From Mobula hypostoma (taxonomy: Eukaryota): a stretch of DNA of 64,000 nucleotides. The translations under genes were made by a program, and so were the position numbers. Below, piece after piece: positions 2,671 to 59,059 of this stretch (position 1 is its first letter; each line of letters opens with the position of its first letter). The notes under the pieces are model-generated. The model had not been told where the DNA came from. It did not search any database and was given only the letters and a program-made list of their open reading frames with translations. Location: NCBI RefSeq assembly GCF_963921235.1, contig NC_086108.1:8866001-8930000 (forward strand), read 5' to 3'.

Positions 2671-4093
2671 AGGCTTACATTAAAGATACAAGGGTTTCAG
2701 GAAGGCGTAAGAGGACCGAAAGTGAGCAGTGTTACAATGAGCTGAGAATTTAGCCTTGGTGGGATTGCTGATATGGGACTCAAAGCTCATCCTAGAACCA
2801 AATAGGGGGTTGTCCGCCCAGGTGCGATGTCAAACCAAAGACCTCAACCCCCAGACAATTCTCCCCAGCATCCTGGAGGCCAGATTCCTCCTCGGAGTTC
2901 TCTGCTCATTAGCACAGTGCTGGTTCCGGGAAGCTGCAGGGTCGCCTTGCCTGTCACTATGTTTCCTCTATCACAAACCTTCTTAAGTACTTCGCTGGCT
3001 GTAAAGAATGAAAAAGTAATCCACAAGTCTTAGGTGTCGTCATCGTTCTGTGCCATGCCCTACAACATAGGTGATCGTGGTTTATCCATACAATTGTTCT
3101 TGACAACTTTTTCTACAGAAGCGGTTTGCCATTGCTGCCTTCTGGGCAGTATCTTTACAAGATGGGTGACCCCAGCCATTATCAATACTCTTCAGATATT
3201 GTCTACCTGGCATCATATAACCAGGACGTGATATGCACTATCTGCTCATACGACCATCCACCATCTGCTCCCATGGCCTCGCCGTACACTGATTTTTTTT
3301 GGGGGGGGAGGGAGAGAAGAGGCTAAGTAGGTGCTACACCTTGCTCAACGGTGACCTAGAGGCTATCGGAGGATAGAAGCACCTTACACCTCCTTTGGTA
3401 GAGACGCATCTCTACTCCGCTGCCCCAAGGTAGGCGAACAGCAGAACTGTCTGTTGGGAAGCAGCAGTTGGCTTGTGTCCTCAGGGGGTTGAGGGAGATG
3501 GAAACTAGACAGGACCTTATTACCAGCTGTGCAGGAGATGGGGAGGCAAGGACACCCTGCCAATGGATGAACACCCACAAGTAAATGGCCTGGCTTGAAG
3601 CCCGAAGGTCGATCTGAAGTCGCCAAGGCTGATGGCTGGAGCCTGAGCCTGCAAACGCCTGCGGATCCACTAGTCTGCTGGGGGATGGGGTGAGGGTCTG
3701 TGTGTGTGCATGGGTGGGAGAGAGGGAGGAATGGGGATTATTCTGCAGTCGCTTGGTATATTTGATTTGTTGTGTTCTGCATTGCTCCGTCAATATTGTG
3801 GGTGCTTTGTGCTGGCACCAGAATGTGTTCTGTGCTGCGCCCCGCATTCCCCTGGCCACCCTTGGGGTGTTGGTTGTTAATGCAAATGACACATTCAACT
3901 GATAAGTAAATCTGTATCTGAATCTAATTGGTCTTTGCCCGAACTCTCGCGTGTTCAAACTGCAAGGATATCAGAGAGGGAGAAGTGTCAGTGAAAGGCT
4001 GAACGAAGGGTCTCGGCCTGAAACGTCGACTGCACCTCTTCCTACAGATGCTGCCTGGCCTGCTGCTTCACCAGCAACTTTGATGTGTGTTGC

Positions 4094-28514: not shown

Positions 28515-28654
28515 CTGTGGGAACAAGAGGTCTTTTAGAACAGAATTAAACTGCAACAAAAATGCTATTAAGTAAATGTACTGTCCAACACTGAACTCTG
28601 TGTATTACTTATGCACAGAGCAAGAAAAACAACAGAGTAGTCCAAGTAAACATA

Positions 28655-29070
28655 TTCTGTCTGGGTAGCCTCCAACCTGATGGCATGAATGTCGATTTCT
28701 CCTTCTGGTAAAAACAAATTACCCCTCTCCCCTCTTCTATTCCCCTCTTCTCACCTTCCTATATCCTTCTCCTGGTGCCCTTCCTCCTTCCCTTTCTCCT
28801 ATGGTCCACTCTCCTCTTTGTTCTTCTCCAGCCCTTGATCCTTCCCTCCCACCTGGCTTCTCCTATCACCATCCAGCTAACCTCCTTCCCTTCCCCCCAC
28901 CATCTTATTCTGGCATCTTCCCCCTTCCTTTCCAGTCCTGAAGAAGGGTCTCAGCCCATAACATTGACTGTTTATATGTTTCCATTGATGCTGCCTGACC
29001 TGCTGAGGTCCTCCAGCATTTTGTGCGTGTTGCTTTGGATTTCCAGCATTGGAAGAATTTCTGCTGTTTA
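28655..29070 (+). mobile_element. Penelope-like 3' fragment
   Basis: CTGGGTAGCCTCCAACCTGATGGCATGAA (GSLQPDGM) followed by a pyrimidine-rich UTR and a degenerate terminal repeat. Confidence 0.75.
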
Positions 29071-29329
29071 TAATTAAACTTTTTTTTTGCTCTCTTTTTG
29101 CATTACTTATTTAATCAAACTTTTCAAATAAATATATTTCTGATTGTAATTTATTATTTGTTATTACACTCAGACTGCACTTAACGCTGAGGATACAATG
29201 CTTGGACGTGGAGCAGTGTGTAAATCAGACTTATGCAGGGTCATTATGACATTACGTAAATGGATATGTGGTCTATAAAAAAAATCAAACCCAAGTATAT
29301 GACATATTATTTTATGTACACAGATACAG

Positions 29330-29895
29330 TAGACACTTCACCTACGAGTCTGTTGGTGTCATTTACTGTATCTGGTGCTCCTGGTGTGGCCTCCTGTATA
29401 CTGGTGAGACCCGAAATAGAGTGGGAGACCACTTCACCGAGCAGCTGTGCTCCGTCCGCCAGGAAAAGCGGGATCTCCCAGTGGCCAACCATTTGAATTT
29501 CGCTTCCCATTCCAACATGTCAATCCACGGCCCCCTCTACTGTCGCGATGAGGCCACACTCAGGTTGGAGAAGCAACACTTTATATTCCGCCTGGGCAGT
29601 CTCTAACCTGACGGCATGAACATCGATTTCTCGGACTTCCGGTAATGCCCCCACCTCTCCTTCCCCATTTCCCATCCCCTTTTCCCTCTCTCGCCTATCT
29701 CCCTGCTTGCCCATCACCCCCCTCTGGTGCTCCTCCCTCTTTCCTTTCTTCTATGGCCTTCTGTCCTCTCCTATTAGATTCCCCCATCTCCAGCCCTGTA
29801 CCAATCAGCTTCCCAACCCTTCACCCCTCGCCTGGTTTCAACCATCACCTTCTGTTTCTCCCTCTCCTCCCCCTACCTTCTAACTCACTCATCTT
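29330..29895 (+). mobile_element. Penelope-like GIY-YIG fragment
   Basis: ORF 29268-29606 contains VIYCIWCSWCGLLYTGETR...RLEKQHFIFRLGSL. Confidence 0.8.
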
Positions 29896-36934: not shown

Positions 36935-37089
36935 CTGGTGAGGATAGGATATACAAAAAAATTACACCTCTCTTGAAAAAGGAATGTTAGGCTGAAGATT
37001 ACAATAAAACATTTGATAAAATAAATGCAACATACATCAAAGTTGCTGGTGAACGCAGCAGGCCAAGCAGCAACTATAGGAAGAGGCGC

Positions 37090-37125
37090 AGTCGACGTTT
37101 CAGGCCGAGACCCTTCGTCAGGACT
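37090..37125 (-). ncRNA. Minimal type I hammerhead ribozyme motif (left arm, sense to NOP53 pre-mRNA)
   Basis: Exact reverse complement of 40309-40344. Confidence 0.8.
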
Positions 37126-40100
37126 AACTGAAGGAAGAGTGAGTAAGGGATTTGAAAGCTGGAGGGGGAGGGGGAGATGCAAAATGATAGGAGAAGACAG
37201 GAGGGGGAGGGATAGAGCCGAGAGCTGGACAGGTGATAGGCAAAAGGGGATACGAGAGGATCATGGGACAGGAGGTCTGGGAAGAAAGACAAGGGGGGGG
37301 GTGACCCAGAGGATGGGCAAGAGGTATATTCAGAGGGACAGAGGGAGAAAAAGGAGAGTGAGAGAAAGAATGTGTGCATAAAAATGAGTAACAGATGGGG
37401 TACGAGGGGGAGGTGGAGCTTTAGCGGAAGTTAGAGAAGTCGATGTTCATGCCATCAGGTTGGAGGCTACCCAGACGGAATATAAGGTGTTGTTCCTCTA
37501 ACCTGAGTGTAGCTTCATCTTTACAGTAGAGGAGGCCGTGGATAGACATGTCAGAATGGGAATGGGATGTGGAATTAAAATGTGTGACCACTGGGAGATC
37601 CTGCTTTCTCTGGCGGACAGAGCGTAGATGTTCAGCAAAGCGGTCTCCCAGTCTGCGTCGGGTCTCACCAATATATAAAAGGCCACATCGGGAGCACCGG
37701 ACGCAGTATATCACCCCAGTCGACTCACAGGTGAAGTGATGCCTCACCTGGAAGGACTGTTTGGGGCCCTGAATGGTGGTAAGGGAGGAAGTGTAAGAGC
37801 AGGTGTAGCACTTGTTCCGCTTACACGGATAAGTGCCAGGAGGGAGATCAGTGGGGAGGGATGGGGGGGACGAATGGACAAGGGAGTTGTGTAGGGAGCG
37901 ATCCCTGCGGAATGCAGAGAGAGGGGGGGAGGGAAAGATGTGCTTAGTGGTGGGATCCCGTTGGAGGTGGCGGAAGTTACGGAGAATAATATGTTGGACC
38001 CGGAGGCTGGTGGGGTGGTAGGTGAGGACCAGGGGAACCCTATTCCTAGTGGGGTGGTGGGAGGATGGAGTGAGAGCAGATATACGTGAAATGGGGGAGA
38101 TGCGTTTAAGAGCAGAGTTGATAGTGGAGGAAGGGAAGCCCCTTTCTTTAAAAAATGAAGACATCTCCCTCGTCCTAGAATGAAAAGCCTCATCCTGACA
38201 GCAGATGCGGCGGAGACGGAGGAATTGCGAGAAGGGGATGGCGTTTTTGCAAGAGACAGGGTGAGAAGAGGAATAGTCCAGATAGCTGTGAGAGTCAGTA
38301 GGCTTATAGTAGACATCAGTGGATAAGTTGTCTCCAGAGACAGAGACAGAAAGATCTAGAAAGGGGAGGGAGGCGTCGGAAATTACCAGGTAAACTTGAG
38401 GGCAGGGTGAAATTTGGAGGCAAAGTTAATAAAGTCAACGAGTTCTGCATGCTTGCAGGAAGCAGCGCCAATGCAGTCGTCGATGTAGCGAAGGAAAAGT
38501 GGGGGACAGATACCAGAATAGGCACGGAACATAGATTGTTCCACAAACCCAACAAAAAGGCAGGCATAGCTAGGACCCATACGGGTGCCCATAGCTACAC
38601 CTTTAGTTTGGAGGAAATGGGAGGAGCAAAAGGAGAAATTAAGAGTAAGGACTAATTCCACTAGACGGAGCAGAGTGGTGGTAGAGGGGAACAAAGCTTT
38701 CTCAAAGTTCTACGCTTCTTTTTGGATTCCAGACCTAATCAGTTCCCCTCTACCACCACTCTGCTCCGTCTAGCGGAATTAGTCCTTACTCTTAATAATT
38801 TCTCCTTTTGCTCCTCCCATTTCCTCCAAACTAAAGGTGTAGCTATGGGCACCCGTATGGGTCCTAGCTATGCCTGCCTTTTTGTTGGGTTTGTGGAACA
38901 ATCTATGTTCCGTGCCTATTCTGGTATCTGTCCCCCACTTTTCCTTCGCTACATCGACGACTGCATTGGCGCTGCTTCCTGCAAGCATGCAGAACTCGTT
39001 GACTTTATTAACTTTGCCTCCAAATTTCACCCTGCCCTCAAGTTTACCTGGTAATTTCCGACGCCTCCCTCCCCTTTCTAGATCTTTCTGTCTCTGTCTC
39101 TGGAGACAGCTTATCCACTGATGTCTACTATAAGCCTACTGACTCTCACAGCTATCTGGACTATTCCTCTTCTCACCCTGTCTCTTGCAAAAACGCCATC
39201 CCCTTCTCGCAATTCCTCCGTCTCCGCCGCATCTGCTGTCAGGATGAGGCTTTTCATTCTAGGACGAGGGAGATGTCTTCATTTTTTAAAGAAAGGGGCT
39301 TCCCTTCCTCCACTATCAACTCTGCTCTTAAACGCATCTCCCCCATTTCACGTATATCTGCTCTCACTCCATCCTCCCACCACCCCACTAGGAATAGGGT
39401 TCCCCTGGTCCTCACCTACCACCCCACCAGCCTCCGGGTCCAACATATTATTCTCCGTAACTTCCGCCACCTCCAACGGGATCCCACCACTAAGCACATC
39501 TTTCCCTCCCCCCTCTCTGCATTCCGCAGGGATCGCTCCCTACACAACTCCCTTGTCCATTCGTCCCCCCCATCCCTCCCCACTGATCTCCCTCCTGGCA
39601 CTTATCCGTGTAAGCGGAACAAGTGCTACACATGCCCTTACACTTCCTCTCTCACCACCATTCAGGGCCCCAAACAGTCCTTCCAGGTGAGGCATCACTT
39701 CACCTGTGAGTCGACTGGGGTGATATACTGCGTCCGGTGCTCCCGATGTGGCCTTTTATATATTGGTGAGACCCGACGCAGACTGGGAGACCGCTTTGCT
39801 GAACATCTACGCTCTGTCCGCCAGAGAAAGCAGGATCTCCCAGTGGCCACACATTTTAATTCCACATCCCATTCCCATTCTGATATGTCTATCCACGGCC
39901 TCCTCTACTGTAAAGATGAAGCCACACTCAGGTTGGAGGAACAACACCTTATATTCCGTCTGGGTAGCCTCCAACCTGATGGCATGAACATCGACTTCTC
40001 TAACTTCCGCTAAGGCCCCACCTCCCCCTCGTACCCCATCTGTTACTCATTTTTATGCACACATTCTTTCTCTCACTCTCCTTTTTCTCCCTCTGTCCCT

Positions 40101-40308
40101 CTGAATATACCTCTTGCCCATCCTCTGGGTCACCCCCCCCCTTGTCTTTCTTCCCAGACCTCCTGTCCCATGATCCTCTCGTATCCCCTTTTACCTATCA
40201 CCTGTCCAGCTCTCGGCTCTATCCCTCCCCCTCCTGTCTTCTCCTATCATTTTGCATCTCCCCCTCCCCCTCCAGCTTTCAAATCCCTTACTCACTCTTC
40301 CTTCAGTT

Positions 40309-40344
40309 AGTCCTGACGAAGGGTCTCGGCCTGAAACGTCGACT
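40309..40344 (+). ncRNA. Minimal type I hammerhead ribozyme motif in the Penelope-like terminal repeat
   Basis: AGTC-CTGACGA-AGGGTCTCGGCCT-GAAA-CG-TC|GACT: stem I AGTC/GACT, complete core, short stem II, palindromic minimal stem III. Confidence 0.8.
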
Positions 40345-43047
40345 GCGCCTCTTCCTATAGATGCTGCTTGGCCTGCTGCGTTCACCAGCAACTTTGATGT
40401 ATGTTGCTTGAATTTCCAGCATCTGCAGAATTCCTGTTGTTTGTGATAAAATAAATACTCAGTTTTAAACAGAATAAAGCAGGAGAGAAGATAATTCCAG
40501 CCCCTAACTTGGGAACAAATTAGCGAAGGACTGGACCTGCGCACAAAAGCGCCAAAACTCTGATAATTCTACACCTCAACAAATATTGTACATTCTTATA
40601 AAAGCACAGTGGAGAGAATTACTTTGCATCACATCTCAGGCAAGCTGCTTATTCTACTTATACCTGGCGAAGTGCTTAGAGAAGAATCAGGTTTACTGTC
40701 CCTGACATGCTGTGTGTAGTGAAATTAGTTGTTTTGCAGCAGCAGTACATAACTGTAAATTAGTTTAAGTATACGTATATATAAACATACACACATACAT
40801 TTATACATGAACACACACATATATTTCAAAATTTAAATAAGTAGTGCAAAAAAAGAAAAAAACAGTAGTGAGGTAGTGTTCATGGGTTCAATGTCCATTC
40901 AGAAATCTGATGGCGGAGGGGAAGAAGCTGTTCCTGAATCATTGAGTGTGTGTCTTCAGGCTTCTGTACCTCCTCCCTGATGGTAGCAATGAGAAGAGGG
41001 CATGTCCAGGGTGATGGGGGTCTGAATGATGGACACCTATTTCAGGCATCACCTCTTGAAGGTGACCTTGATGGCGACTAGTGCCCACGATGGAGCTGGC
41101 TGAGTTTACAACGCTATACAGCTTTTTCTGATCCTGTGCATTGGAGCCTCCATACCAAGTAGTGAAAGCCAAAGTGATTAGCTGACTCAAGTATTTTATT
41201 ATTTCTATATATCATCAGGTTTCAAGATATAATCACCATTACAGGAATATAACCCATGCATATCAATAGTTAACAGCAATAAGATCTTCAGGGGTTATAC
41301 TTTGTCGAGCCTGTGCTGATCAATATTGTACCCCTGCTTAATAACACCACCACCAATCCTAAACCCAGTGTTCCTCAGCTACAGAATACTCGATCAAATG
41401 TCCACAGACGTACCGTGGAGAGCATTCGAACTGGTTGCATCACCGTCAGGTACACAGGGGGTTGATGCACAGGATCGGAAAAAGCTGCAGAAAGTTGTAA
41501 ACTCAGCCAGCTCCATCATGGGAACTAGCCCATCCAGCATCGACATCTTCAAAAGGCGATGCCGCAAAAAGGTGGCGTCCATCATTAAGGACTCCAATCA
41601 CACAGAACATGCCCTCTTCCCATTGCTACCATCAGGGAGGGGTCACAGGAGCGTGAAGACACACATTCAACATTTTAGGAAGAGTTTTCTCCCCTCTGCC
41701 ATCAGATTTCTGAATGGACAGTGAACCCATAAACATTATCTGTTTTTTGCACTTTTTTAAATATACTTCTTATTGCATCCGATAATCCGATAATTTTTAA
41801 ATTATGTATTGCTGCTGCAAAAACAACATAGTACATTCCAGTTATATTAAACTTGATTCTGATGTATTAAGGAAACTGAAACATAAAGAAAAAATATGGG
41901 AACTGGGGGCTGTGGAGAAGAGACTGGATGAGATTCAAGATTGTTTCCTTACTGAATGGTGAAGCAGGTTCAATAGGACAAATGGCCTTCTTACAGCAGT
42001 GACAGATCTGCCCCCTCTAGTGATGTACACCAGGGCTTCACAGGAATAGGCAGTCTCACCCACAACCATCTCATTGTCATACAGGGAGATCCTTATCCAC
42101 TAGAACTGTAACTCACTGTTACAGAATGAAGGCAGTGTACCCCTAGTGTTCTACACAAGCCTGCAGCCACTGGGAAACTGGGAGCAAAACTTAGGTTGGA
42201 GGCCATGCCTCATATTTCATCTGGGTATCCTCTAACTTGAACATTCATTCCTCTAACATCTGGTAATTTCTCTCCCTACACTCCCCTACCCTCTTCTCTT
42301 CTCCTCTGCTGCCCATCACCTCCCTCTGGTCCCCCTCCTCCTTCCCTTTCTCCCATGATCCACTCTCCTTTCCTATCAGATTTCTTCTTCTTCAGGCCTT
42401 TACCTCTTCCACCTATCACTTCCCAGCTTCTTACTTAATCCCCCTCCCCACCCACCCACCTTCCCCCTCACCTGCTCTCACCTATCTGCTGCCATCTTGT
42501 ACTCCTCTCCCTCTCCCCGCCTTCTGCCCCCTTCCTTTCCAGTCCTAATGAAGGGTTTCAGCCCAAAATGTTGACGTTTGTTTGTGTTATTGATTTGTTT
42601 GTTTATTGAGCTACAGCGCAGAATCAGCCATTCAAGACGCACTGCCCAGCAATCCCTCCACTTAATCCCAGCCTTATTATGGGACAATTTACAATGACCA
42701 ATCAACCTACCAACCCATACGTCTTTGGACTGTGGGAAGAAACCAGAGCACCTGGAGGAAACCCACACGGTCACGGGAAGAACATACAAACTTCTTACAA
42801 GAGTGGAGGGAGTTGAACCTGGGTCGCCTGTACTGCTAAAGCGTTGTGCTAAACACAGCCGCATCATTCCTCTCCACAGACGCTACCTGACCTGCTGAGA
42901 TCCCCAGCATTTTCTGCATTTCCAGCATCTGCAGAATTTCTTGTGTCTAGAATGCCTCATGACTCTGCATGGATTTTTTCTGTTTCACTTCCACAGTAGA
43001 GAACCGCGTTTGTGGAATTTGAATAGCGGAACGTGTCAGAAACTCAC

Positions 43048-43620: not shown

Positions 43621-44565
43621 ATCATCTCCAAGTTTGCGGATGACACAAAGCTGGGTGGCAGTGTTAGCAGTGAGGAGGATGCTAAGAGGATGCAGGGTGA
43701 CTTGGATAGGTTGGGTGAGTGGGCAAACTCATGGCAGATGCAATTTAATGTGGATAAATGTGAAGTTATCCACTTTGGTGGCAAAAATAGGAAAACAGAT
43801 TATTATCTGAATGGTGGCCGATTAGGAAAAGGGGAGGTGCAACGAGACCTGGGTGTCATTATACACCAGTCATTGAAAGTGGGCATGCAGGTACAGCAGG
43901 CGGTGAAAAAGGCGAACGGTATGCTGGCATTTATAGCGAGAGGATTCGAGTACAGGAGCAGGGAGGTACTACTGCAGTTGTACAAGGCCTTGGTGAGACC
44001 ACACCTGGAGTATTGTGTGCAGTTTTGGTCCCCTAATCTGAGGAAAGACATCTTTGCCATAGAGGGAGTACAAAGAAGGTTCACCAGATTGATTCCTGGG
44101 ATGGCAGGTCTTTCATATGAAGAAAGACTGGATGAACTGGGCTTGTACTCGTTGGAATTTAGAAGATTGAGGGGGGATCTGATTGAAACGTATAAGATCC
44201 TAAAGGGATTGGACAGGCTAGATGCGGGAAGATTGTTCCCGATGTTGGGGAGGTCTAGAACGAGGGGTCACAGTTTGAGGATAGAGGGGAAGCCTTTTAG
44301 GACCGAGGTTAGGAAAAACTTCTTCACACAGAGAGTGGTGAATCTGTGGAATTCTCTGCCACAGCAAACTGTTGAGGCCAGTTCATTAGCTATGTTTAAA
44401 AGGAAGTTAGATATGGCCCTTGTGGCTACAGGGGTCAGGGGGTATGGAGGGAAGGCTGGGTTCTGAGTTGGATGATCAGCCATGATCATAATAAATGGCG
44501 GTGCAGGCTCGAAGGGCCGAATGGCCTACTCCTGCACCTATTTTCTATGTTTCTATGTTTCTATG
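43621..44565 (+). mobile_element. CR1-type LINE, 5'-truncated, same young family as 730-1925
   Basis: KFADDTKLGG...RPHLEYCVQFWSP ORF nearly identical to 828-1883; (TTCTATGT)3 tail; sits inside a Penelope-like terminal repeat. Confidence 0.92.
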
Positions 44566-47459: not shown

Positions 47460-50050
47460 AAAGTTCTAAGTAAAATTTACTATCAGAGTACATACATGTC
47501 CCCAGATGCTTTTTTTGCAAGCATACTTAGCAAATCTATAGAACAGTAAATGTAAACTGGATCAAGGGAAAACAATGTGTTCAAATACAGATATACATAA
47601 ATAGCAATAAATAACGAGCAGGAAACAACAGGATACAGATTCCTTAAAGTGAGACTATTGGTTGTGGGAACACCAGAAATAGAATGAGTGTAGTTATAAC
47701 CTTTTGTTCAAGAGTCTGATGGTTGAGGGGTAGTAACTGTAACTGAACCTGGTGATGCAAGTCCCGAGGCACTTGTACACTTTACCTGATGGCAGCAGTG
47801 AGAAGAGAGGTGAGGACCTTTGATGATGGGTGCTGCTTTTTTACAGCAACATTTCATGTAGGTGTGCTCAATGGTTCAGTGGGATTTACCTGTGATATAC
47901 CGGCCAAATCCACTCAAAGGTATTGGTGTTCCCATAACAGGCCATGGTGCAGTCAGTCAGCACACTTCCCACGATACACCTACAGGAAATTGCCAGCATT
48001 TCTGATGACATGCTGAATCTCCACAGATTCCTGAGTAGAGGCACTACTGTGCTTTCTTCGCAATTGTATTTATATGACGGGTCCAGGACAGGTCTTCTGA
48101 GATAGTGACACCCAGAAGTTCAAAGTTACTGATCCGCTCCACTTCTGATCTTCTGATGATTACTGGTTCATGGACTTCTGATTTCCCTCTCCTGAGGTTT
48201 ACAATCAGTTCCTTGGTCTTAATGACATTGAGTGAGAGGTTGTTGTTATTACACCACTCAGCAAGATTTCAATCTCCCTCCTGTATGCTGATTCATCACC
48301 ACCTTTGATACAGCCCACAACGGTGGTGTCATCAGCAAACTAGTATATGGTGTTGGAGCTGTACTTAGCCACACAGTCATAGGTGTAAAGCGAGTAGAGC
48401 AGAGGGCTAAGTACACATCCCTGTGGTGCACTGTGCTGATGGAGATTGTGGAGATGTTTTTGCCAATCAGAACTGACTGGGGTATTGAGACCCCGGTCTA
48501 GTTAACTGATTAGTTTTGAGGGGACGATGATATTAAATGCTGAGCTACAGTCAATAAACAGCTTCACTTCCACATCTGGACATCTTTGCTGTCCAGATGT
48601 TCCAGGGTTGTGTGAAGAGTCAACAAAATAGCATCTGCTGTAGACCTGTCGCTTCAGTAGGCAAATTGAAACCGATCCAAGCTGCCACTCAGACAGGAGC
48701 TGATATGCTTCAACACCAGCCATTAAAACACTTCATCACAGGACGGTAGTCTTTGAGACAGGTTACCATGCTCTTCTTGGGCACCAGTATAATTGAAGCC
48801 TGCTTGAAGCAGGTGGATACAACACACTGCTGGAGCCAGAGGTTGAAGATATCTGTGAAAACACCAGCCAGCTGGTCGGCACAGGTCTTCAGTACTCGGC
48901 TAGGGACTCCATCCAGATCAGATTCTTTCCTTGGATTCGCTCTCTTGAAGGCAGCCTGCACGTCATCTTCAGATACTGAGACCAAAGGATCATCAGGAGA
49001 CGTAAGGATACGTGATAATTCCTCACTATTCCAGGGGTCAAAGTGAGTATAGAAGGCATTGAGCTCATCTGGCAGTAAAGCTCTGCTGTCCCCTATGTTG
49101 CAAGAGATTTAACTTTGTAGGAGGTTATGGCATTCAAACCCTGCCACAGGCTGTCCTCATCGACTCCAGTAGGTCTGGAATCTCTACCTCACTTGTGAGA
49201 TGGCTTTCCAGAGATCATACCTGCACCTCATTCCTGATCTCCAGACTTGAATGCCTCTGATCTGGCTCTCAGCAAATTCCAGATTTCAATGTTCAACCAG
49301 CACTTTTGATTGGGGTAAACCCTGAACGATTTTGTGGGGACACACTTATCCACAGCTGTTTTAATAAAGTCTGTTATTTGTAATTGTTGTAGTCATTCAG
49401 GTCCTCAGATGAGTTCTTGAACTCAGCCTAGCCCACTGACTGAAGGCAATCCTGTAATCGTTCCTCTGCCTTCCACAACCACCTCTTAGTTGTCTTGATC
49501 TCTGGAACCTTGCTCTTTAGGCTGTCTGAATGCCAGCGGTAGGAGTACAGCCAAATGATCTGACTTGCCAAAATGCGGTCTCGGGAAGGAATCACAGGCA
49601 TTCCTTATTACAGTGCAGCGAAGAGTTGGGACCTCTGGTGCAACAGGTTACGTGCTGGTGATAATTGGGCAGGGTTTTCTTCAAACAGGTCTGGTTTGAA
49701 GTCACTGACTATAATTTGAGCAACACACACAAAAAATGCTGGTGAACACAGCAGGCCAGGCTGCATCTATAGGAAGAGGTACAGTCGACGTTTCGGGCCG
49801 AGACTCTTCGTCCTGACAAAGCGCCTCGGCCCGAAACGTCGACTGTACCTCTTCCTATAGATGCTGCCTGGCCTGCTGTGCTCACCAGCATTTTTTGTGT
49901 GTGTTGCTTGAATTTCCAGCATCTGCAGATTTCCTTATGTTTGCAACTATAATTTGACGTGCTGGGATGGACTGTTTCTTGCCAGCAGGCAACATTCTGC
50001 AGTTTCGCGAATGCTTGCTTATAATTAGCCACTGGTGGTATGTACATTAA
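47460..50050 (-). mobile_element. Rex1/Babar-like non-LTR retrotransposon, degenerate, interrupted by the 49720-49945 insertion
   Basis: VLKTCADQLAGVFTDIFN, LFIDCSSAFNIIVP fragments; many stops. Confidence 0.75.
49720..49945. mobile_element. Miniature inverted pair of Penelope-like terminal repeats
   Basis: Inverted arms ~49720-49803 and ~49825-49907 plus a ~38-nt tail; TSD ACTATAATTTGA at 49708-49719 and 49946-49957. Confidence 0.85.
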
Positions 50051-53000
50051 AACTCCAATACAATGACAGAAATTACACGTGCATACGTATGTAGAGGGAG
50101 AGTTCGTACCTGGCTAGGACCATCACAGGTGGATGCTTGAGTTAAACCTGTCTCAATCAATACTACACCTTCTGAAGAAATGATATAACATTAGCAGTCA
50201 GATGCAAGTAGTTAGGAAGGCAAGAGGCATGTTTCTCTTTAGTACAAGAGGGTTGGAGTTTAGAAACAGATTTTGTTACAATTGAGCTCTCAATCTGTCT
50301 AAGTCCTTCTGGAGCCTCTCTACTTAAAACTACCTGCCCCTCCTCATGTCTTCATATTGTCTGCAAACTTTGTAACAAAGCCATCAATTCCGTCATCCAA
50401 ATTACTGGAATATAACACAAAAAGCACCAGTCCGAAGACTCCTGAGGAACACCACTAGTCACTGGCAGCCAAACCGAAATGGCTCCCCTTACTCCCACCC
50501 TTTGGCCCTCACCAATCAGCCACTGTTTAATCCATCCATCCCTGTAATAATAAGCCAAGGGCTTATTAAGCAACCTAGAGTGTGGCACCTTATCAAAGGC
50601 CTTCTGAAAATCCAAGTACACAACATCTTTTTCTATCATTTGGGTTGCTTTTCCAGCTCGAGTTTCACTTAAGGAAACCAATTCTCCTTTGTCGACCCTG
50701 CTTATTACTTCTTCCAAGAATACCAACAGATTTGTCAGGCAAGTTTTCCTTAAGGAAACAATGCTGACCTTAGAAAAACAGAGGGCTATGGGTAACCCTA
50801 GGTAATTTCTGAGGTAAGGACTTGTTTGGCACAGCTTTGTGGGCCAAAGGGCCTGTACTGTGCTGTAGGTTTTCTAAGTTTCTATGATCTCTCTCTGTCT
50901 CTCCCCCTCTCACTCGCTGTCCAAGGGAAGTGCTGGAGTCTTGTGTCTTGAACAAGGTTTAATTGACATGGTTTGTGGATCGGACTCTGTAGTTTACGGT
51001 TTGATGTGTTTCTGGTTGCCCCTTCTTTGTTGCTATTTTGTGCTTTTGATGGGGGCAGACAGGCTCCGCAGCCTGCAGTCAACAAACAGCACAGCATTAA
51101 GATTCAACTGAACATTCCTGAACTGTCTGACCTTATATGTTCTGTGTTTTTCACCAGTCCAGTTTTTTTTTGTTTGTGCAATTTGTTCTTTTTTTTGCAT
51201 GTTAGGGGTTTGATTTTTTAAAAATAAGTTCCATGGTTTTCTTTGTTTCATGGCAGTCTGTGGGAGAGGCGAATCTCAGGGTTGTAAATTGCATGGACGT
51301 TGATAATAAATATATTTTGAATCTCTGTGACCCACTAACATAAAGAAGAAGATACAAGTGCATCAGTACTAGTACCGCCAGACTGGGAAACAGCTTCTAC
51401 CCCCAGGCTGTGAGACTAACGAATACCCTGCCATCACTGAGGTCTCATCTCTTGAGACAGCAAGTTGCTTACTGTTTCCCTGTGCTGCGCACCACATACA
51501 TTTTGAATTATATTTGTTAAATTATTTGTGGTAATGTATTGTTTTATGTGCTGTGTGTGATGCATGTTCCGTAGATGCATTGTGGTCCGGAGGAACATCG
51601 TTTTGTTTGGATGTACAGGTGTGTATGGGGTGTCCAAGGAGGGGAAGCACTTCTGGTGAAGGGGCTCGTCCTGTCCATTCTGGGGCAGCTCACTCACTTT
51701 TGGTCTCTACTGGACACTCAGCTCTCACCTGTGGCTCCAAGTAGCTGTCTGCATGTGACAGAGGCCACACCCTGGTACACCACTTTGACAGTGGGCTAAA
51801 CCAGGTGAGGGTGACTGGCGGGCCGGCCTCATACCCCCAGTGAGATAGAAAGGTGAATGTCTCAGCTCCAGCGGAGATCTACAGTGAGATCCAAGGGTGA
51901 CCTGCAGGCTTGAGCAGGGAAGGAGCAGCTTACACCTCTGGTAGAGATGTCTCTCCACCCCATCACATATTACCAGCAGTACGTTAACCACATTGAACCG
52001 CAAGAGACCTCCACTCAATCCCATACCTATGTGGTACACTGACAAATCTATTCAAGTCCAGAATCATGTTACACAGTAATGCGCTAGCATCTGGCACCCC
52101 AGTGTTACACAGTGACAAACTGCTGGAGGAACCTGGCAAGTCAGACATCAGAAGACATTGGAGCAGAATTAGGCCATTCAGCCCATTGAGTCTGCTTCAC
52201 CATTCCATCATGGCTGATTCATTATCCTTCTCAACCCCATTCCTCTGCTTTCTCCTCACAACTTTGACACCCCAGCTAGTCAAGAACCTATCATCCCTCA
52301 CTTTAAATATACCCCTCCACAGCTGTCTGTGGCAATGAATTCCAACACATTCACCACCCTCTGGCTAAAGAAATTCCTCCTCATCTATGTTCCAAATTGA
52401 CACATTTTGAGGCTATGCATTCTTGGTAGGACCCTTTATCAGGACTTGGCCCAAAATGTCAACTGTTTCTTCCCCTCCTTAGAAGCTGCCTGACCTGCTG
52501 AGATCTTCCAGTATGGTGTGTGTGTTCCTCTGGGTTTCCAGCCCTGATTCAGAGTTTCAACCTGAGACGTCAACATGATGAAATGGGTGAACAGACTCAA
52601 TGGGCCAAAATGGCCTAATTCTGCACCTATACCTCATGGTCAATTCCTCAAATTCAAGTTTATTGTCATGCAACTGTGCACATGTATACCACCAGATGAA
52701 ACAATGTTCCTCCTAACCAAGGTGCACAACGTGGTACATAATTCACACACAACTCAAAGAAAAATTACCACAAACAAATCAACAAATAGTAAGGAGTATT
52801 AAAGCAACAAGTTAAAACATAAACAGCATAATGTTACCGGTGCTTCATATGCGATGAGTCCTGGGTGGTGGCAGGGAATTCAGTAGTCTCAAAGCCTGGA
52901 GGAAGAAGCTGTTTCTCATACTAACCATCCTTGCCCTACAGTACCTCCTGCCTGATGGTAAGGAGTCAAAGAGATTGTGGGACAGATGGGAGGCTTCTCA

Positions 53001-57945: not shown

Positions 57946-59059
57946 ACCATATACACAAGGAAGTCTGCAGATGCTGGAAATCCAGAGCAACACACACAAA
58001 ATGCTGGAGGAACTCAGCAGGTCAGACGGTATGTTTCTCCCATGGCCCACTCTCAGATTCCTTCCTCTCCTGTCCTTCATCTTCCCACCCACCTATCACC
58101 TTTCAGCTATCCTCCTTCCCCTCCCCACAACTTTTTATTCTGGCAACTACCCCCTTCCTGGCCAGTCCTGATGAAGGGCCTCGGCCAGAAACATCGACTG
58201 TCCATTCCAATGCAGGCTGCCTGACCTGCAGAGATTTGTGACAGCCACGAAACAAAAAAAACCATGGAACCCATTCAAAGAAAAACATCAAACCCCCCCA
58301 ACGTGCAAAAAAAATATAAGCAAAAAACACAGCATATAAAAAAATTGTCAACCGTTTTGGACCCCATATCTCAGAAAGGATGTGTTGGCATTGAAGAAAG
58401 TCCAGAGGAGGTTCACAAGGATGATTCCAGGAATGAAGGGGTTAATATATGAGAAGCGTTTGGGAGCTTTAGGCCTGTACTCACTAGAATTTGGAAGAAT
58501 GTGGGGGGATCTCATTCAAACATATCGAATGTTGAAAGGACAGGATAGGGTGGATGTGGAGAGTTTCCTATGGTGCGGATATCCAGCCTCAAAGTCGAGG
58601 GGCAATCCTTTAGCATGGAGGTAAGGAGTAGTGAATCTGTGGAATTCTCTGCCACAGACTGTGGTGGAGGCTAGGTCCGTGGTTACAGTTAAGGTGGAAG
58701 TTGATCGTTTCTTGATTTGTCAGGGCAAGAAGGCAAGGCTATGGGGTTGAGTGGGATATGGGATCAGTCATGATGGAATGGCAGAGCAGACTGAATGGGC
58801 TGAATGGCCTAATTCTGCTCCTATATGTTATGGTCTTATGGTCTAAAACACCAAACCACAAAGTCATCGAAAGAGTCCAGGCATATTCAGTTCAGCTCAA
58901 TGTTTGTTTTCAGCGGGCGCCTCGATTGAAATCACCTAAAATAGCAATAGAGAAAGGAACAACCAGAAATCAGAAAAACATCGTAACACGAACTACAGAG
59001 TCCAACTTACAAACTCCATTGATTAAACCTTGCACAAGGCCCAGGACTGCCCCAGCATC

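Follow-up and report, generated by a model that had tools for sequence, protein, structure and literature searches.

The 226-bp insertion at positions 49720-49945 of the window (the whole stretch of DNA that was analysed, 64,000 nucleotides of Mobula hypostoma contig NC_086108.1) was found to consist of two head-to-head copies of the 3' end of a Penelope-like element, one with a short tail and one without. A single insertion event probably produced it (probability about 0.68): reverse transcription would have been primed from each of the two cut target strands, with a separate start site of an endonuclease-bearing element for each; the assignment of one start site to each arm is what we infer. 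The insertion is dead and heavily 5'-truncated. Tail, inverted pair and double start sites have all been published before, and the insertion is an ordinary, tidy example of a known pattern.

Structure of the insertion and its parent family

The anatomy of the insertion was observed directly. The insert lies flush between two identical 12-bp copies of the target-site duplication ACTATAATTTGA (49708-49719 and 49946-49957, plus strand), a 12-mer with two occurrences in the whole window, both bordering the insert, and with A or T at 10 of 12 bases (83%). When 35-nt segments spaced 226 nt apart were drawn at random, 108 of the 20,000 pairs had some 12-mer in common, with draws landing in the 17-24 kb satellite skipped yet counted in the denominator of 20,000. 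The left arm (49720-49812, minus strand) is a tail-less element 3' end, a piece of the pLTR, and ends with GTTGC at +67 from the predicted hammerhead cut. The right arm extends on the plus strand from 49813 as far as the GTTGC point at 49907 and is followed by a 38-nt tail (49908-49945, plus strand), which is confined to this arm. Aligned about a 2-nt centre, 49720-49812 and 49815-49907 are identical at 88 of 93 positions, three of the five differences lying within 10 bases of the palindrome tip (P about 0.01, post hoc). DNA folding of the palindrome gave z = -27, and none of 200 shuffles was equally good.

The same plan is found in a 3,417-bp palindrome at 37027-40443, which lies between copies of a 13-bp target duplication with 92% AT (37014-37026 and 40444-40456, plus strand). 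Its tail-less left arm (37027-38692, minus strand; 1,666 bp) and its right arm (38693-40407, plus strand), whose 5' end is 49 nt longer, are identical at 1649 of 1663 positions, and a 36-nt tail follows at 40408-40443 (plus strand). This large copy has a 49-nt unpaired centre, which begins at the junction with a perfect 8-bp palindrome (38693-38700). The left arm of the small insertion opens with GCAAC at 49720, equivalent to element base 37027 of the large copy, and the two tails are identical at 33 of 36 positions. The preliminary description, which had proposed an independent insertion with its own 12-bp duplication, a left-arm start in common with the large palindrome and a right-arm tail of about 38 nt as against 36 nt, was thus correct in these points, the exact duplication abutting both insert ends. 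The difference in tail length is probably one of bookkeeping. Past TGTTTG, the large copy has the base pair TG where the small one has CA, which fits decay of one CG; the TGA that follows the tail in the large copy is assigned to its target duplication, and the majority of loose contig ends at 49943 start with TGA among the loose ends listed.

The small insertion is devoid of coding sequence, and its tie to the family is the identity of its arms with the large copy (81/93 and 79/93). As this identity is only 79-81 of 93, the small palindrome is a separate insertion, from another subfamily. The right arm of the large copy holds a 5'-truncated, frameshifted RT-linker-GIY-YIG frame (stop at 40013), a pyrimidine-rich UTR and an intact hammerhead (40307-40346) that passes the descriptor for minimal type I hammerheads. 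The frame contains the RT motifs GVAMG and RYIDDC, a GIY-YIG motif and, 36 residues before the latter, the linker CKRNKCYTC (CX4CxxC). A CX2-5CxxC linker marks the Neptune and Nematis clades, and Penelope/Poseidon are without it (PMC8557442); the linker is present in the large copy, where Penelope/Poseidon membership would entail its absence. Because RT motifs, CX4CxxC linker and GIY-YIG nuclease occur together, the parent family, judged from its sequence, is an EN+ Penelope-like element of Neptune/Nematis type. The features expected of EN+ Penelope-like elements were found: RT followed by a C-terminal GIY-YIG domain, a pLTR hammerhead, a one-sided tail and an AT-rich duplicated target. Pfam scores of the large copy lie below the cut-offs (GIY-YIG: 22.1 bits, E 2e-4, cut-off 22.6; RVT_1: 14.3 bits, cut-off 29.6), and the RT of the family is represented in the window only in 5'-truncated form; a full-length unit (partial-tandem pLTR-ORF-pLTR) is absent from the window. 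The top atlas match (0.97) is a cluster with HTH_animal (90%) and GIY-YIG (64%); comparison with solved structures gave no match.

The centre of the small palindrome reads GTC|CT|GAC (49810-49817) and coincides with the 5' edge of the hammerhead; the arms have GTC in common at the join, or five of six bases if the upstream bases of the element are counted. Matches to the minimal type I descriptor were obtained at 40313 (plus strand), 37121 (minus strand) and 46980 (minus strand), that is, in both arms of the large copy and in one other copy, and in none of 20 shuffles; searching the window with Rfam at the gathering score gave no hits. Both hammerhead copies of the small insertion fail the descriptor. 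It had been proposed that the inversion broke both cores. This holds for the left core, which reads AGGACGA on its own strand where CUGACGA is expected and is missing its first two bases. It does not hold for the right arm, which retains three stem I bases and the whole core span; its decayed minimal type I hammerhead (49810-49843, plus strand; predicted cut after 49840) fails by point changes, namely CUGACAA (G8 to A) and a stem II mismatch.

Starts near this edge were also seen in other copies: the hammerhead core is reached by 13 window copies, and five of these have their start between -3 and +2 of the first core base. Among the listed loose ends of the public contigs described below, the majority sequence before 49825 becomes, in three runs, AT-rich just 5' of AGTC; ahead of 49813, a stretch of 1,052 letters is unmatched in one of the contigs listed. 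In longer copies the hammerhead edge is immediately preceded by a pyrimidine tract and AG, resembling a splice acceptor, and the end of the intron of D. virilis Penelope is placed in helix I (PMC4209133). The 5' starts at the hammerhead edge may reflect such an acceptor, an idea only. Inspection by eye of 52425-52590 suggests that the first 18 hammerhead bases, counted from the stem I edge, stand in inverted form immediately ahead of the remaining copy, and a second decayed hammerhead-like stretch was seen there after a partial tail.

End positions in the window and in public contigs

Seventeen family pieces were found in the window with the small insertion as query; all were aligned, and their ends were assigned by eye. 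Ten of the 17 run into the final portion of the tail, where their 3' ends lie some +91 to +105 from the predicted cut and are followed by unrelated flanks. Another four end no more than 2 nt from GTTGC (+67), namely the left arms of both palindromes and the copies ending at 4093 and about 2110, and the remaining three end elsewhere (about +36, +55-57 and +80). If ends were uniform, four of the seven non-tailed ones would coincide to within 3 nt with P about 0.007. Placed against the predicted hammerhead cut, as had been suggested earlier, 14 of the 17 window copies fall at two favoured 3' end points some 36-38 nt from each other; this clustering was observed directly.

The preliminary description had also cited a fragment ending at GTTGC. 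This solitary piece (3999-4093, plus strand), which extends from the hammerhead core to GTTGC, was recovered in the alignment; it is weak evidence, with no target duplication and another repeat adjoining it. At 13 other stretches in the window no target duplications of at least 8 nt were found. Since only the two palindromes have a target duplication, the end at 4093 may not be the original insertion end. Both window insertions with a target duplication (2/2) carry the tail on one side only.

Two further arrangements were noted. A probable older head-to-head pair, the third in the window, lies at 57953-58229, with a tailed minus-strand arm (57953-58025) beside a longer plus-strand arm (about 58038-58229); the plus-strand arm has its 3' end at about +36, the tailed arm is the shorter one, and no target duplication was found at this pair. 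At 28652-29663, three plus-strand family pieces stand out of unit order (ORF end, tailed pLTR, endonuclease region), possibly a broken partial tandem. Elsewhere the window contains a long tandem array of a 48-bp unit (17680-about 24000; more than 100 copies) and a repeat of roughly 950 bp in two copies of opposite orientation, 95-97% identical and 42 kb apart (730-1677 and 43623-44564).

Contigs from four public runs of four organisms were aligned to 49810-50229 at 85% likeness (17,732 to 45,946 contigs aligned per run), and loose ends were taken from the 24 of 903 rows listed. Long loose ends pile up at 49942-44 in all four runs (at least 788, 837, 215 and 721 contigs, among the rows listed). 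The letters past 49943 are AT-rich and agree at about 0.4, which indicates many different flanks. The tail end is a sharp, family-wide boundary in the four public runs; the drop in depth after 49949 is partly built in, as the reference departs from the family there. A further pile at 49929-32, again among the rows listed, falls where a tail variant interrupts the alignment. In the 24 of 903 rows listed, no loose-end peak falls on 49907, the tail-less point; the reference arm is atypical at 49878-49893, where the small insertion differs from most family members, so that such junctions would be under-represented. Ten of the 32 listed pieces have at least 60 unmatched letters on the 3' side of the element, eight of them carrying tail sequence and two stopping at 49902 and 49914 (tail-less in appearance). 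Opposite-strand contig joints (49825/49893 and 49909/49942) are ambiguous in orientation and were excluded from use.

Three contigs bear on the site itself. In the X5 contig, which has 4 other letters and 2 gaps, the entire tail is continuous with duplication and flank, so that at least the tailed end is shared with that organism; the junction of tail and flank common to a related organism is thus observed directly. The X1 contig is identical to 49917-50229 and includes 29 tail bases (bridging limit 31). The X10 contig agrees with the flank from position 49961, apart from 20 other letters, and beyond the match has 67 letters incompatible with the tail, which suggests an empty site in that organism. 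Other X10 contigs join the tail region at 49931-36 back to 49854-60 and suggest head-to-tail units of about 80 nt there. The right flank (49960-50047) is itself a low-copy repeat, with depth raised in all four runs.

Proposed mechanism and rival explanations

In the proposed event, the GIY-YIG nuclease would make two nicks in an AT-rich site, one per strand with a stagger of 12 nt, and so provide two 3'-OH ends. The bottom-strand 3' end would prime at the outer site, the end of the tail, and priming by the top-strand 3' end would take place 38 nt deeper in the element, at the inner site (GTTGC). The two cDNAs would halt at the hammerhead 5' edge, where other copies also start, and anneal by three shared bases (GTC/GAC) of a small natural quasi-palindrome; gap filling would then give a head-to-head palindrome flanked by the 12-bp duplication. 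As both arms copy the same 93 nt, such a route would call for strand displacement or for two templates, either separate RNAs or the pair of pLTRs in a single tandem RNA. In LINE-1 twin priming, too, cDNA synthesis is primed from both 3' ends of the target, and microhomology joins the cDNAs, which yields an inversion within a target duplication; the second start is variable there, and the two parts hardly overlap. Here, unlike in LINE-1, both starts would be fixed and close to the 3' end, and the arms are therefore duplicates.

That the two end points are reverse-transcription start sites is likely, given the genomic end pattern and by analogy with the PAc protein of the Anolis carolinensis Poseidon element. 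PAc cuts and extends both target strands in vitro, favouring AT-rich DNA, and reverse transcription initiates at two sites, the tail being the sequence between them (PMC11167929). Two fixed priming points had been put forward as a mechanistic signature of the present family, with a likeness to the short Penelope 3' tail. The likeness stands, as the tail of anole Poseidon is bounded by two RT starts in the same account (PMC11167929), and so do two preferred ends (14 of the 17 window copies); the signature is that of the known Penelope-like tail and is not the family's own. In the main text of the PAc study (Poseidon clade), no difference in start site between strands is reported, and inverted insertions are not discussed (PMC11167929). 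An explicit rule of one start per strand was not found in the open-access texts searched.

Two candidate determinants of the inner start were rejected. A conserved RNA stem-loop was not supported, with sense-strand z of -0.9 to -1.3 in four copies taken as single sequences, and none of eight consensus pairs showed a compensatory change (nine of the 17 copies aligned). At the tail-less end of the small insertion the target could pair with seven tail bases (two wobbles), a value equalled by 34 of 5,846 AT-rich 12-mers; primer-template pairing as a rule was discarded, with seven pairs in the small insertion but none in the large copy.

The sequence alone fits double priming as well as another route, in which a single cDNA primed at the tail end runs to the hammerhead edge, folds back on GTC-CT-GAC and copies itself, the nuclease cutting at the fixed GTTGC before the product is joined to the other flank. 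Read through the centre, the minus strand looks exactly like such a fold-back with a 2-nt loop. A stem of 3 bp with a 2-nt loop is a poor primer, which counts against this route, and the large copy has a 49-nt unpaired centre, albeit with the 8-bp palindrome at its junction in favour of folding. The arms resemble each other (88/93) more than the large copy (81/93 and 79/93), that is, they have private variants in common, which fold-back copying explains equally well. Solitary copies also end tail-less (4093 and about 2110), although without duplications, and this speaks against the route. Self-priming has been proposed before from junction palindromes, and nuclease resolution as the origin of the tail (PMC3846280 and PMC8557442, respectively); in subsequent in vitro mapping, each boundary of the tail was linked to an RT start (PMC11167929). 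We consider the fold-back of a single cDNA unlikely, though a serious competitor. Counting tailed and tail-less ends and source templates in inverted pairs could separate double priming from fold-back.

Two other accounts are far less probable. The insertion resembles a small element with long terminal inverted repeats, and non-autonomous pLTR derivatives are described in a preprint (bioRxiv 10.64898/2026.07.22.740005), so that a self-contained 226-bp mini-element, MITE-like or retrozyme-like and mobile as a unit, was considered. The arrangement is single-copy within the 64-kb window, however, its ends are also the ends of single-armed copies and of the 3.4-kb copy, its arms are plain pLTR sequence, and no joint linking the 5' ends of the two arms was found among the 15 of 25 joints listed (contigs represent palindromes poorly); a mini-element is accordingly very improbable. 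It is more improbable still that the palindrome arose in assembly, as an artefact, or that an ordinary tailed copy was duplicated in inverted orientation at a later time. Although none of the contigs listed spans the whole palindrome, the arms differ at 5 of 93 sites, the exact 12-bp duplication encloses both of them, the large copy shows the same asymmetry, and the contig of a second organism joins tail, duplication and flank.

Priming by both target strands, one at each start, is therefore preferred here. A stricter version, in which all four ends are fixed in the family (two RT starts and a stop at the hammerhead edge) and inverted insertions obligatorily use one start per strand, is doubtful and is offered tentatively. 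If it were true, one start per strand would be as expected of an asymmetric PLE dimer, and the 226-bp palindrome would be the minimal reaction product and a ready-made readout in the Neptune/Nematis group, which lies outside that in vitro study (PMC11167929).

Relation to known elements

The closest comparison is with the rotifer elements Pen2/Pen2a of Adineta vaga, in which the tail is optional on one of the inverted pLTRs and the duplication is 8-10 bp (PMC3846280). Shared with these are the head-to-head 5'-truncated copy, a 30-40-nt tail at one end, a duplication of similar size, a small palindrome or overlap at the inverted junction and the pLTR hammerhead (PMC3846280). Unlike them, the small insertion comprises two pLTR ends only (226 bp, no ORF), and its duplication is 12 bp as against 8-10 bp. 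That the Penelope-like tail is often at one end only is given as a general scheme in a figure legend (Fig. 2) of PMC8557442, a repeat of 34-37 bp is recorded for D. virilis (PMC2377424) and a curation guide depicts inverted pLTRs with short extensions (PMC8969392).

With PAc (PMC11167929) the family shares two end points one tail-length apart, 3' of the hammerhead, and an AT-rich target; both target strands would be extended here as well. It differs from PAc in having the CX2-5CxxC linker that is missing from Penelope/Poseidon. At the inner end, the sense RNA is rich in U and G here, with no supported stem-loop, whereas PAc starts in an AC-rich stem-loop; PAc moreover starts without homology, whereas seven tail bases could pair with the target in the small insertion and none in the large copy (PMC11167929). 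As a compact natural record, the insertion shows that the end geometry of the Poseidon element studied in vitro recurs in a family of Neptune/Nematis type.

Minimal type I hammerheads of metazoan PLEs are described in PMC4209133, including pairs that lie 100-700 bp from each other on opposite strands. The short stem I, the extra base before stem II and the palindromic helix III are found here as in those hammerheads, whereas both copies in the small insertion are defective (PMC4209133).
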